Assembly: GCA_037189525.1 (NCBI GenBank)
Contig: JBBCJC010000013.1
Span: 1 to 59,988 of the forward strand
Length of the DNA: 59,988 bases
Source: Gemmatimonadales bacterium
Lineage (GTDB): Bacteria; Gemmatimonadota; Gemmatimonadetes; Gemmatimonadales; GWC2-71-9
Direction: 5' to 3'
Position numbers and translations under genes: made by a program. How positions within the stretch are numbered: position 1 is the stretch's first letter; every line of letters starts with the position of its first letter. Below the pieces are notes generated by a model. It worked only from the letters and a program-made list of their open reading frames with translations. It did not search any database and was not told the DNA's origin. Positions 3,001-59,518 of the stretch are shown here, piece after piece.

Positions 3001-3319
3001 TGCGCGGGGAACGCACGAGAAGCACTCGCAAATGATGCGCTGGCGGCGGTTCATCCCCGCATGCGCGGGGAACGCCACGATGATACCTGTGTGCCCTGCT
3101 GTCGCGCCGGTTCATCCCCGCATGCGCGGGGAACGCTCGAGGTGATCGATCCGAAGCAGGTGCTCGGTCGGTTCATCCCCGCATGCGCGGGGAACGCCGG
3201 CCGATCTCCCATCGGGGTCGGCGTCGGAGCGGTTCATCCCCGCATGCGCGGGGAACGCATGCCTAGAATTTGGCGTAATGCGGTGACGATCGGTTCATCC
3301 CCGCATGCGCGGGGAACGC
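1..3319 (-). CRISPR. Type I-E CRISPR array: 55 repeats (first cut by window edge) and 54 spacers; repeat GCGTTCCCCGCGCATGCGGGGATGAACCG on the minus strand
   Basis: 29-bp repeat (+ strand CGGTTCATCCCCGCATGCGCGGGGAACGC) at 61-bp period; spacers are 32 nt except 33 nt (1365-1397) and 34 nt (1488-1521); resembles the E. coli I-E repeat; last repeat 3291-3319 adjoins the leader and cas2. Confidence 0.99.
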
Positions 3320-55695: not shown

Positions 55696-55831
55696 GTCTA
55701 ACGACTTTGGTGTTCAGCGGCAGCCGGAACGGAGCCGAGCGGCCGCGCCAACCTCCCCCCAACATGGGGGCGCGGCCGCGACTTCGGAAGAGGAACCCCG
55801 CCCGGCTGCCCGCTGCAAACCCTTATTAGGC
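55696..55831 (-). repeat. attC-like site 1 (distal, degenerate)
   Basis: + strand GTCTAAC...ATTAGGC, 136 bp; core G-to-A change and mismatched L arms. Confidence 0.85.
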
Positions 55832-55877
55832 AACCGTACGCGGAGACCTACACTTACCCTACCCATGTTCGGTGAAG

Positions 55878-56420
55878 CTACCGGCCACTTCGGTGAAGGT
55901 ACTCAAGCCAATCGGCGCTATCCCGAAGGGATCGAGCAAACACGACTTGCAGACGCGAGGCTTCCGCCTGCAGGGCGCTCCAATCCGGGGCATAATTCCC
56001 TCGCAGTGCAGCATGATACCCCGCACAATGAGCCGCAGCCCAAAGCAGATTCAGCGCTAAAAGAGTTTCGTTGCCACTTTCCGGTCCACGAAAGTCGGAA
56101 ATATAGGCCCGCACACCGCCAAGAAAGCGGCGTGCGCGGCGACGATGTACCGCGATGACCAGTCGAAGCCCATCATCCACCGTGTGACTCCACTCCTCGC
56201 CGCTAGTGCCGATCAGGGCCGTTGCCCGAGCGACCGTTCCCCTGATGAGGCGCCTGCGCTCGGGATCGGTCGTCTGCCAGCTATGATACTGGATCGGAGG
56301 TAAATCCTCGGGAGGGTTCCGCCAGCTGAGAACGCGCGGCCCAAAACCCTCAACCGCCACTAGGATGCGCTCCCGGAGCGGAAAACGGGCCGTCGGCCGC
56401 ACAAAGTCCACGCTGCTCAT
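55878..56420 (-). CDS. Cassette ORF A, hypothetical protein (180 aa)
   Basis: Single ORF filling the space between attC1 and attC2 in array orientation. Confidence 0.7.
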   Translation of the reverse strand: MSSVDFVRPTARFPLRERILVAVEGFGPRVLSWRNPPEDLPPIQYHSWQTTDPERRRLIRGTVARATALIGTSGEEWSHTVDDGLRLVIAVHRRRARRFLGGVRAYISDFRGPESGNETLLALNLLWAAAHCAGYHAALRGNYAPDWSALQAEASRLQVVFARSLRDSADWLEYLHRSGR

Positions 56421-56468
56421 GGTTGGGTTGTCATTCGGAGCGAGTGAATATGGGAGCCTAGTCAGGTT

Positions 56469-56609
56469 GCCTAACGACTTTGGTGTTCAGCGGCAGGCGC
56501 GCGCACGGAGCCGAGCGGCCGCACCAGCCTCCCAACCAACATGGGGGCGCGGCCGCGACTCCGCAAACCGGCACCCCGCGCGCCTGCCCGCTGCAACACC
56601 TTGTTAGGC
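56469..56609 (-). repeat. attC-like site 2
   Basis: GCCTAAC...GTTAGGC, 141 bp; L boxes GTTCAGC / GCTGCAAC on the + strand. Confidence 0.9.
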
Positions 56610-56610
56610 C

Positions 56611-57153
56611 TCACGATTGCTCGGTAACCGCTGCGACAAGACTCGGCCAGGGACAGGTCTCGTCCAGCCAACAAATGCTACTAACCGGATCAGCCCAGAT
56701 TCCGCGCTCAACAACGCTCACGAACTGCGGTGGTACCCAGGTGACCAAAAAATTTCGACCAGAGGAATCACACACCGACGGTACGGAAATAAAGGCAACC
56801 CAGGGCGGCGTATTGTACACGTCGAAGTAACCCTGTGTCTCCGCTTCCGCCGCCCCGTCACTTATCTCCGCATCGGGATAATAAAGCAGAAGCCGACCAC
56901 CCGCGGAACCGCGATGGGGGCGCGCCCGGCCACGCCTCAACTGGTGAACGCGGTTGAGGGCGACATGTTTAACCGCTTCCGCATAGGAGGGTTCCAAAGG
57001 ACGTGGTGCGAGGTCCGTCGTCCGCAAGCATGTCTTTGGAGCAGCGACGTCCACTCGAGGCTTACACCAAGCGACAACTTCCGCCAGCCGATCCCATAAG
57101 GGATCGAACGAGGCGGTACAATTGGGCTCAGTCTGGATATCTTCTTTACTCAT
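56611..57153 (-). CDS. Cassette ORF B, hypothetical protein (180 aa)
   Basis: Stop codon 1 nt from attC2; globular-looking core GRLLLYYPD..SDGAAEAETQGYFDVYNTPPW..LVTWVP. Confidence 0.8.
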   Translation of the reverse strand: MSKEDIQTEPNCTASFDPLWDRLAEVVAWCKPRVDVAAPKTCLRTTDLAPRPLEPSYAEAVKHVALNRVHQLRRGRARPHRGSAGGRLLLYYPDAEISDGAAEAETQGYFDVYNTPPWVAFISVPSVCDSSGRNFLVTWVPPQFVSVVERGIWADPVSSICWLDETCPWPSLVAAVTEQS

Positions 57154-57184
57154 GAAGCGGCCTAGTACCTGATGGTCGCGTGAG

Positions 57185-57321
57185 GCCTAACGACTTTGGG
57201 TTTCAGCGGCGGCCGGGCACGGAGCCGAGCGGCCGCGCTATCCTCAGCTAACATGAGGGCGCGGCCGCGACTCGGGAAGAGGAGCGTCGCCCGGCCGTCC
57301 GCCTGCAAACCCTTGTTAGGC
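57185..57321 (-). repeat. attC-like site 3
   Basis: GCCTAAC...GTTAGGC, 137 bp. Confidence 0.9.
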
Positions 57322-57327
57322 CGCTTG

Positions 57328-57945
57328 CTAGCGAAAGAGCCGGGCTAGCTCCGCCATCACATCGGGACCATACTCCGGATCCTTCCGGATGAGCAGAGCG
57401 CGTCGGCTGATCGGGTCCAGGGCGAGAAAAACCTCCGCTTCACCGTCCTGGAGGAAGAGCTTGGTGACCAACCAGGAACCAGCGGGTGACGTGGTGAACT
57501 CTCCGGCGACTGTCGAACCTGTCCCATCACCAGCTCCCCGCGTCAGGTTTTCGCCGAGAATGCCCACATCAAGAGTGAGGGAGTCAACGTACGGACGCTC
57601 TTGCCACGCGGCCCCCTCAGCAAGTGCTTGCTGTAACATCGCGAGAAAGTCGACCGGCCGGCGCTCGGCTCGCCCGCGCAAGATTCCGCGAGCGAAGCTG
57701 AATCGCGGCGAGTCAGCGGCGGATCGCCGCGGCCCGAGTTCTAGCTCGAGAGTCGCTGGGGTACTTCCCTCCAGGAGTGGTCGGAGCGTCCAGCGTCCCA
57801 GGCCGTCATCAGGGTGGTACTCTGCGACTAGTTCAACGGTGTCGACTACACTCGGAACCGGTCGTCGCGACGTTCTACGCAGCCTCAACACGAGCACAGT
57901 CCCGAGCAGAATAAGTAGGAGGACGGCGATAAGACTCTTTGTCAT
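57328..57945 (-). CDS. Cassette ORF C, hypothetical protein with N-terminal membrane anchor
   Basis: MTKSLIAVLLLILLGTVLVLRLRR; AAGGA RBS just inside the cassette start. Confidence 0.78.
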   Translation of the reverse strand: MTKSLIAVLLLILLGTVLVLRLRRTSRRPVPSVVDTVELVAEYHPDDGLGRWTLRPLLEGSTPATLELELGPRRSAADSPRFSFARGILRGRAERRPVDFLAMLQQALAEGAAWQERPYVDSLTLDVGILGENLTRGAGDGTGSTVAGEFTTSPAGSWLVTKLFLQDGEAEVFLALDPISRRALLIRKDPEYGPDVMAELARLFR

Positions 57946-57966
57946 AGGAGAATCCTTCCGCAAGCG

Positions 57967-58102
57967 GCCTAACGACTTTGGGTTTCAGCGGCAGCCGCGC
58001 TAGGAGCTGAGCGGCCGCGCCATCCTCCAGCAACATGGGGGCGCGGCCGCGACTCCGGAAGCGGAACTCTGCCCGGCTGTCCGCTGCAAACCCCTGTTAT
58101 AC
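57967..58102 (-). repeat. attC-like site 4
   Basis: GCCTAAC...GTTATAC, 136 bp; the toxin stop codon TAA lies inside the R'' box GTATAAC. Confidence 0.9.
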
Positions 58103-58396
58103 CGCATCCGTAGGAAGCGGAAACAGACGCGCCCCATGGAAAACCGTGAGAATATGCACGACGTCGGGGCCGACAAGGTAGACAATTCGGTAAGCACCGA
58201 TGAGCACTTCGCGAACGTCGGCTCGGTCGAGCTCCGGAACGATGCGGCCAGTTTCAGGAAACTGCTGCAGGTGATCTGCGGCGGCGAACAGACGCTCGAC
58301 GTGCAAGGCTGCATACCGTGGGGAACTGCGAGAGATATAAGACCGGATGGCTTCGAGATTCTCGATCGCCCGTTCCGTCCAGATGATGCGGGTCAT
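58097..58396 (-). CDS. RelE/ParE family type II toxin
   Basis: IIWTERAIENLEAIRSYI...FPETGRIVPE...REV..GAYRIVY...ILTVFHGAR. Confidence 0.92.
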   Translation of the reverse strand: MTRIIWTERAIENLEAIRSYISRSSPRYAALHVERLFAAADHLQQFPETGRIVPELDRADVREVLIGAYRIVYLVGPDVVHILTVFHGARLFPLPTDAV

Positions 58397-58578
58397 GGGC
58401 GACCCAACAACCGCCGTTTTGCCTCTTCGTGGGACACCACTTGGCCGGCCTCCACCTGCCGAAGCCCGGCCTCGATTTCGGCCAGAAAATAGAGCCGCTC
58501 CATGGCTTCCTCGACCGACGTCTCGGCCGGAAGGCGCTTGATGACTTCCAGAACTTGGTCTCGGGTGGTCGGTGTCAT
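58393..58578 (-). CDS. Putative cognate antitoxin (61 aa)
   Basis: LPAETSVEEAMERLY...IEAGLRQVEAGQVVSHEEAK; ATGA overlap with the toxin; GGAG RBS. Confidence 0.85.
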   Translation of the reverse strand: MTPTTRDQVLEVIKRLPAETSVEEAMERLYFLAEIEAGLRQVEAGQVVSHEEAKRRLLGRP

Positions 58579-58606
58579 GGGACAAACTCCATCAGGGTGC
58601 CACCGA

Positions 58607-58635
58607 AGAGTAGACCGACTCACAAGGAGGGGCAA
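58607..58635 (-). promoter_or_regulatory. Internal promoter of the toxin-antitoxin cassette
   Basis: TTGCCC, 17 nt, TACTCT upstream of the antitoxin. Confidence 0.6.
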
Positions 58636-58661
58636 CCCAGGAGGATTGGGGAGTGGATGCG

Positions 58662-58799
58662 GTATAACGACTCTGGTGTTCAGCGGCAGGCGCTCACGGA
58701 GCCGAGCGGCCGCGCCATCCTCCAATCAACATGAGGGTGCGGCCGCGACTTCGCAAACCGGCCCTCCGCGCGCCTGCCCGCTGCAACACCCTGTTAGGC
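58662..58799 (-). repeat. attC-like site 5
   Basis: GTATAAC...GTTAGGC, 138 bp. Confidence 0.9.
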
Positions 58800-58816
58800 A
58801 GTAGGTACGACAAACG

Positions 58817-59362
58817 CTAATGCTGCATCCCATACTCGATACGAACAACGCGCCATTGTCCAGCACGATGCTGGACCTCGACAAACACTTCGCTGCCGTG
58901 ATCAATTCGCACGGGATAGACCGCGAGGCGGACAACGAGAGCGCTATCGCCTCGCCAGCTAACGGGCGCGAGCACGATAAGTGGGCCACCCGGACGCAAG
59001 GTGCGGCCATCTTGGGCGACAATGCGTCCGGAATCGACAACAGCCAATTTGGGATATATCGCACGAAGACTGGGGAGTTCCATGAGATCAAGGAGTTCAA
59101 TCGGAGGAGATAGGCGGCCATCGAGGCGGCGGAGCGGCTGGTAATGTGTTGTGGACAGAATACGTGGATCCATCAATTCGATCTGCTGCGAACTCTGAAG
59201 CCATCGGAGGACGGAATCGAGCGCCGCAGAGCGGACCTCACGCTCAATGCACCACATGACTGCACATCTCTGCGACGTGCGCGCAGGTCTCTCTTGGGCA
59301 AGGATCGTCGTCGGGGTTCCTGCTAGGAGTAGTATCGCAAGGAGGCTGAGTGCTTGAAGCAC
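58817..59362 (-). CDS. Cassette ORF E, secreted hypothetical protein
   Basis: Signal peptide ending ..TILA-Q; AGGAG RBS immediately after the R' box; GTG start. Confidence 0.78.
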   Translation of the reverse strand: MLQALSLLAILLLAGTPTTILAQERPARTSQRCAVMWCIEREVRSAALDSVLRWLQSSQQIELMDPRILSTTHYQPLRRLDGRLSPPIELLDLMELPSLRAIYPKLAVVDSGRIVAQDGRTLRPGGPLIVLAPVSWRGDSALVVRLAVYPVRIDHGSEVFVEVQHRAGQWRVVRIEYGMQH

Positions 59363-59378
59363 GAGGATACTCCTATCT

Positions 59379-59518
59379 GCCTAACGACTTTGGGTTTCAG
59401 CGGCAGGCGTGCTCACGGAGCCGAGCGGCCGCGCCAGCCTCCAACCAACATGGGGGCGCGGCCGCGACTCCGGAAGAGGTAGCCCGTCGCGCCTGCCCGC
59501 TGCAAACCCCTGTTAGGA
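59379..59518 (-). repeat. attC-like site 6
   Basis: GCCTAAC...GTTAGGA, 140 bp. Confidence 0.9.

Follow-up and report, generated by a model that had tools for sequence, protein, structure and literature searches.

The window analysed here is a stretch of 59,988 nucleotides, contig C13 of the 4.65-Mb genome of a Gemmatimonadales-like bacterium, and its positions 55696–59518 hold six repeats of about 135 bp with single genes between them. Read on the minus strand, each repeat opens with RYYYAAC and closes with GTTRRRY; between them come, in order, a spacer of 5 nt, an L box carrying a single extra base, a long stem, the matching L box and another spacer. These repeats are integron attC sites, directly repeated with open reading frames (ORFs) between them, and the region forms the distal end of a large chromosomal integron of the sedentary type. 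Each of its five complete cassettes carries its own inverted ends, which are longer than the 7-bp core and pair within the cassette rather than across an attC site as it stands in the array.

The top strand of the array corresponds to the minus strand of the window, and the cassette ORFs therefore lie in sense and in one orientation. The plus strand of the window is accordingly the bottom strand, predicted to be the one that folds and is recombined by the integron integrase, IntI. For each cassette, the left arm is the end (R'') and the right arm the start (R'). The features are as follows.

59379–59518, minus strand: attC belonging to the cassette upstream, read R'' to R' in array order; cassette E begins at its R' side
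58668–59384, minus strand: cassette E, crossover to crossover; 181-residue ORF at 58817–59362 with no Pfam match
59372–59385, minus strand: start arm of cassette E (R' with its extension); the extra base, 59376, falls at position 10 and in the predicted fold is an unpaired T of the folding (plus) strand
58793–58805, minus strand: end arm of cassette E (R'' plus extension), pairing with 59372–59385 in the circle
58662–58799, minus strand: attC of cassette E
57973–58667, minus strand: toxin-antitoxin cassette; toxin ORF at 58097–58396, short upstream ORF at 58393–58578
58655–58668, minus strand: start arm of the toxin-antitoxin cassette, 14 bp, perfect
58096–58109, minus strand: end arm of the toxin-antitoxin cassette, overlapping the last codons of the toxin
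57967–58102, minus strand: attC of the toxin-antitoxin cassette
57191–57972, minus strand: cassette C; ORF at 57328–57963 with no Pfam match
57960–57973 (start) and 57315–57328 (end), minus strand: arms of cassette C, 14 bp
57185–57321, minus strand: attC of cassette C
56475–57190, minus strand: cassette B; ORF at 56611–57153 with no Pfam match
57179–57191 (start) and 56603–56615 (end), minus strand: arms of cassette B, 13 bp
56469–56609, minus strand: attC of cassette B
55702–56474, minus strand: cassette A, last of the array; ORF at 55878–56420 with no Pfam match
56465–56475 (start) and 55825–55835 (end), minus strand: arms of cassette A, 10 of 11 matched
55696–55831, minus strand: attC of cassette A, the terminal site of the array; R'' degenerate, with AAT in place of AAC

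A bottom-strand hairpin of the form R''-L''...L'-R' is predicted for the attC sites of the window, the terminal one having AAT at R''. In the folds of these sites, two bulges lie six pairs apart on the L'' arm, and in all six the proximal extrahelical base is a C on the bottom strand, where G is usual. The toxin belongs to the ParE family (PF05016, E 1.1e-18), and the short ORF upstream, without a Pfam match, is presumed to encode its antitoxin.

Pairing of the cassette ends

Pairing was measured as gap-free runs counted from the crossover G, the start of a cassette being compared with its own end. In the window, the runs are 14 for the toxin-antitoxin cassette, 14 for C, 13 for B, 11 for A and 9 for E, the last followed by one extra base and four more pairs. 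An initial annotation, made from the sequence alone, had placed ten such arms; all ten are present at those coordinates, and the runs bear out its reading of A as 10 of 11 and of E as 9 plus 4 with one bulge. A owes its mismatch, at the first base, to an R'' that ends in AAT. As that annotation also described, the left arm of the toxin-antitoxin cassette reaches into the end of the toxin gene, encoding its last codons and its stop, which is the TAA of R''. The five runs sum to 61, the best among 120 permuted pairings of starts with ends (mean 36.2), and the six linear attC sites of the window show only 4–8 bp of pairing. The central proposal, that each cassette has private inverted ends longer than the 7-bp core, thus holds for all five.

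Across the genome, 49 of 51 detected cassettes were retained, namely those with no inner attC and a length under 1.3 kb. Their runs have a mean of 10.65, a median of 11 and a maximum of 14, reaching at least 9 bp in 44/49 and at least 12 bp in 20/49. Pairings between different cassettes average 5.59 and linear attC sites 5.69, and the observed mean was reached by none of 5000 permutations. When the comparison is confined to pairs with identical 7-bp cores, a cassette still matches its own end over 10.9 bp, against 7.7 bp for another's. In the filtered set for this genome, the ends pair in 48/48 cassettes at the variable positions 6 and 8. The permutation and identical-core comparisons rule out chance or consensus bias as the source of the pairing, and pairing across the linear attC is ruled out at 5.5–5.7 bp. 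The comparison with shuffled pairings that the initial annotation had called for (about 5.6, against the genome median of 11) and its claim that the extensions pair across the cassette, not the linear site, are thereby upheld genome-wide.

Folding of the circular junction gives one continuous stem, which exceeds the linear junction in stability by about 6 kcal/mol on average; this gain is a consequence of the pairing and not independent evidence for it. The proposal that the ends pair only in the excised circle, where they extend the attC stem, agrees with this fold and was already in print, in passages of PMC2727003. Models of attC and synthetic sites that end at the 7-bp R box omit 4–7 paired bases that are present only in the circular form. 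Overlap with coding sequence was rejected as a cause: runs in this genome are not shorter where the stop codon lies at least 15 bases away (11.2, n=25, versus 9.6, n=17), the ORFs in this comparison being longest-ORF guesses with spurious ones included. Short runs on contig C7 proved to be an artefact of four second-family attC sites that were missed by the profile and recovered by a structural detector.

The C7 cassettes starting near 3309, 4601, 5791 and 9755 are about 345 bp long, belong to this second attC family and have no convincing ORF; they are possibly ORF-less promoter or RNA cassettes. Three of the four are near-copies with the same mismatch at position 7 of their end arms.

The same pairing is found in other arrays. 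In other genomes of the genus, 97/118 cassettes were kept, with a mean run of 10.36, a maximum of 14 and at least 9 bp in 79/97. Gemmatirosa kalamazoonensis NZ_CP007129.1 has, next to an integrase, an array without annotation that comprises at least 70 cassettes; 68 of the 69 cassettes taken up were kept, with a median of 11 and at least 9 bp in 58/68. In other phyla, 8 of 11 cassettes were usable, with runs of 7–11 bp. A pattern search of five relatives returned 2 sites only, and the stretches of Pseudoalteromonas and Vibrio halioticoli gave too few sites, which places Vibrio-type superintegrons outside the comparison.

For class 1 integrons, 24 rows were reduced to 17, representing 12 distinct cassettes, after removal of 7 in which an inner attC had been missed, the start was fused or attI was misplaced. 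Perfect runs reach 13 in blaGES and 12 in aacA4, catB8, aadB and aadA2 (5 of the 12 cassettes at 12–13 bp). With mismatches allowed, aac(6')-IIa matches at 11/12 positions and aadA1 at 10/12, while runs are shorter in arr-3, dfrA14 and dfrA27 (8 each), dfrA12 (7) and a DUF1010 cassette (5); 7/12 cassettes have at least 10 matches among the first 12 positions. The novelty suggested for the window is not borne out by these equally long runs, which give the outcome that the initial annotation had itself set in advance as real but not novel. Passages of Bouvier 2009 (PMC2727003) state that in most cassettes self-pairing exceeds the 7-nt R'/R'', extending over 9–11 consecutive nucleotides, and cite Rowe-Magnus 2003 and Sundstrom 1991 for the extended pairing; self-pairing of R' and R'' over that length in the circular form is found here as well. 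That R' and R'' need not match within an array is stated in passages of Loot 2017 (PMC5371416). Extended private cassette ends are a known feature of integron cassettes and not a new phenomenon, and our main observation adds a clean measurement to it.

The extra base in the R arm

The interrupted run of cassette E has counterparts elsewhere. After removal of duplicates, cassettes over 1.3 kb and those with fewer than 5/6 matches at positions 4–9, 231 of 265 cassettes remained, and in 43 of these the start arm has a single additional base at position 10. The top strand has A there in 34/43, which makes it T on the strand that folds. Where pairing breaks at position 10 (57 breaks), an extra base fits only the start side in 35 and only the end side in 4 (P 3e-7), and both sides in 8; a free one-gap alignment places a weight of 23.4 at position 10 and at most 5 elsewhere. 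The bulge is established by the pairing that resumes beyond it in this genome (0.91 with the own end versus 0.28 with those of other cassettes, n=11) and in the genus (0.90 versus 0.23, n=10). Resumed pairing is weak in the metagenome loci (0.58 versus 0.42, n=12). In Gemmatirosa, where one pair follows, the bulge is not established by pairing, the match at position 11 being 0.10 with the own end and 0.23 with others (n=10), and the extra base is not seen in any of the 12 distinct class 1 cassettes. The 11 bulged cassettes of this genome, cassette E among them, encode different proteins.

On the L arm, the distal extra base fits position 10 at 44/48 sites in this genome, 62/64 in Gemmatirosa, 28/35 in the metagenome and 44/84 in the genus. 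By the two-fold symmetry of the site, the R-arm base is predicted to occupy the place symmetric to the known distal extrahelical T of the L arm. According to passages of PMC3053210, residues P232, H240 and H241 in the non-attacking monomer stack that L-arm base, and its binding in cis is described in PMC2727003, likewise in passages, as disorganising the active site and so disabling that monomer. The His-His pair that stacks the extrahelical base in VchIntIA is retained in the IntI of this genome.

It is possible, if doubtful, that the R arm is a full integrase half-site of 11–14 bp symmetric to the L arm, and that in about a fifth of Gemmatimonadota-type cassettes its own extrahelical T, at the position which on the L arm disables the bound monomer, acts as a heritable, per-cassette brake or tuner on R' cleavage. 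Such a brake, lying at the start of a cassette, would act in the circle and equally at the attC upstream of it in the array, where conserved positions 9 and 10 remain able to frame the base. No description of an R-arm bulge was found in the literature searched, which included passages of PMC5027507, PMC7439510 and PMC2095811 and left most subscription papers and supplements outside the search. If this proposal is true, the base would be a fourth unpaired feature in the attC code and a constraint on models of how cassette ends form. If the integrase reads the bulge, mobility would be set in part by the first eleven bases of a cassette, outside the three unpaired features described in the published passages.

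How the matched ends may be kept

Together, the two ends of a cassette probably make up the whole R arm that the integrase binds in the circular attC, and selection would preserve them every time the cassette integrates. Crossover at G|TT splits each attC, leaving the G and the sequence upstream at the end of the cassette and the remainder of R' at its start. Only the excised circle reunites the start of a cassette with its end, and it is the circle alone that integrates at attI. In the circle, the bottom strand would fold and the start would pair with the end for about 11–14 bp, not 7, a length that may correspond to the stretch covered by one integrase monomer. The pairing would be kept because every cassette must pass through a well-folding circle to integrate at attI.

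Several observations are consistent with such a half-site. The run length is bounded, with only 1 of 15 runs that reach 14 going further in the genus, and 1 of 39 that reach 11 in Gemmatirosa. Xer and Cre sites typically have arms of 11–13 bp. At positions 7, 9 and 10, the R-arm consensus has the same bases as the L arm (C7, G9 and C10), and some R arms also carry a bulge at 10 as the L arm does. Two related cassettes, with 73% protein identity and alignable leaders, differ from one another at both ends (positions 4, 8 and 11), yet each is perfectly matched to itself; a four-member family with 37–44% identity has likewise changed on both ends, once across a lost stop codon. Related cassettes with different but self-complementary ends point to continued upkeep, a pattern that separate captures of one gene family could mimic. 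These two-sided changes, together with the pairing, its cassette specificity and its presence in other lineages, are the observed parts of the explanation. Predicted recombinogenic folding is higher with a cassette's own start in 47/48, 79/84 and 53/64 cases, which is expected by construction.

A number of points weigh against selection on a full half-site. The correspondence between pairing length and the footprint of a monomer is read from sequence. Linear attC sites, the natural substrates of excision with 4–8 bp of pairing, fold nearly as well in this genome (median 0.79 versus 0.86), so that the gain from circular pairing may be small. Mismatches persist, with two in aadA1, some in one catB8 allele and the same one in three C7 cassette copies; such persistence weakens both strong selection and repair at every cycle. 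Base composition at position 12 accounts for the ceiling in Gemmatirosa, with 4 matches against an expected 4.7. At that position the end arm has G in 52/64 cassettes and the start has A or C, which gives a bottom-strand T-G wobble in 31. The mirror between the arms is inexact, the L-arm extra base in this genome being mostly G on the top strand (36/44) and the R-arm base A (9/11). Among internal mismatches (8 bottom-strand, 4 top-strand and 16 transversions), a bottom-strand G-T bias is not evident, and selection leaves unexplained how a new cassette first acquires matching ends. We rejected bottom-strand G-T bias as proof of selection, since the excess at first breaks (71 versus 20) is largely predicted by base composition and the internal mismatches are too few.

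A second explanation, which we regard as unlikely, is that the matched ends are a scar of cassette birth, one end having served as template for the other (through template switching, for instance, or fill-in on a folded single strand), which would yield a perfect repeat of 11–14 bp that later decays. It would account for the near-perfect pairing at variable positions around unrelated genes, as in the 48/48 at positions 6 and 8, for the lineage-specific run lengths and for the contrast between a perfect aadA2 and an aadA1 with two mismatches. It also fits the lack of correlation between the similarity of end sequences and that of attC bodies (rho -0.10 to 0.07, all P above 0.1). A plain copy, however, gives no one-sided extra base at a fixed position, as seen in 43/231 cassettes including 11 around unrelated genes in this genome. 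For related cassettes to have changed on both sides, there must have been upkeep or more than one capture of the gene family, and positions 7, 9 and 10 are conserved in sequence like the L arm. The suggestion in the initial annotation that one end was templated from the other is therefore not supported, the fixed one-sided base and the two-sided changes pointing away from it, and its inference about genesis is unproven. A templated origin and later selection can nevertheless coexist. Passages of PMC5371416 and PMC4792948 state that the mechanism of cassette genesis is unresolved; models of it must yield matched ends of 11–14 bp with an optional one-sided bulge, a requirement that does not itself identify the mechanism.

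Ongoing repair, in which mismatch repair or quasi-palindrome template switching perfects the stem of the folded single-stranded circle without any selection, accounts for near-perfect pairing and two-sided changes alike. We consider it improbable, as three dispersed C7 cassette copies retain the same mismatch, aadA1 and one catB8 allele retain theirs, and the position-10 bulge is not removed.

Least probable is reuse of a few parent scaffolds, whose ends and bulge would be inherited as genes are swapped inside existing cassettes: unrelated genes are in some cases flanked by the same end sequence (in this genome, one 12-mer occurs 4 times among 45), a short leader motif recurs at positions 16–19, and the attC bodies of bulged cassettes in this genome are somewhat more alike (score 103 versus 85–89, without a significance test), but bulged cassettes in Gemmatirosa have no such attC similarity (35.4 versus 36.6), and ends and attC bodies are uncorrelated in this genome (n=45) and in Gemmatirosa (n=60), a comparison of limited power as attC bodies within an array are alike. 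Inheritance of the ends with the attC body was rejected for want of this correlation.

The leader motif, a purine and a pyrimidine followed by ATC, recurs in the leaders of unrelated cassettes. It is found at 19/84 starts versus 3 ends in the genus, 14/64 versus 3 in Gemmatirosa and 8/48 versus 5 in this genome.

Genomic setting and comparison with known systems

A profile built from the attC sites of the window has 71 matches, some of them partial, on eight contigs of the genome. An integron integrase gene lies at C2:2394-3322 (minus strand), split over two reading frames. Its two pieces match TIGR02249 at 225 and 131 bits, neither singly reaching the 265-bit cut-off, and the C-terminal piece aligns to VchIntIA (2A3V) across its whole length (E 7.5e-46). 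Named relatives of the integrase come from Gemmatimonadales, and full-length relatives exist at 92–97% identity; the integron may be inactive here, or the split may be an assembly error. A crossover at C2:2297, in a putative attI, gives the first cassette beside intI a 12-bp match to its own end. From the shared attC family, we infer that the array of the window belongs with this gene.

Several small contigs consist of cassettes only. Of the contig ends of C4, C12 and C16, those of C4 and C12 carry the same opening bases as the partial cassette found at the window's right edge. The array was thus broken at repeats by the assembly. On the other side, beyond the last attC (55696–55831), a short cassette-free stretch is followed by an ArsR-type helix-turn-helix gene and an AHSA1 gene. 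That attC is probably a decayed terminal site.

The arrangement resembles the chromosomal integrons of Treponema, as described in passages of PMC3607928, in that intI is transcribed toward the array (here from C2:3322 to 2394, minus strand), as it also is in Gemmatirosa. It differs in phylum and in the division of intI between two reading frames.

With the class 1 cassettes blaGES, aacA4, catB8, aadB and aadA2, the cassettes studied here share perfectly matched ends of 12–13 bp. The class 1 attC sites are mostly shorter and mutually unlike, whereas those of this genome form a homogeneous family of about 135 bp.

The closest likeness in print is to the extended attC sites of PMC2727003, whose passages describe pairing of a cassette's own R' and R'' beyond 7 nt, the R''-L''-L'-R' anatomy and extrahelical bases. 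The pairing there spans 9–11 nt, and here it has a median of 11 and extends up to 14. Those passages make no mention of an extra base that recurs, as here, at position 10 in the R arm. Its nearest counterpart is T12''/T24 of the attC L arm in the VchIntIA-VCR structure (2A3V). Like the L-arm base, the R-arm one follows nine paired positions on the strand that ends in AAC, and it is mostly T. T12''/T24 is known only on the L arm, whereas the base described here is optional (43/231) and lies on the arm that is cleaved.

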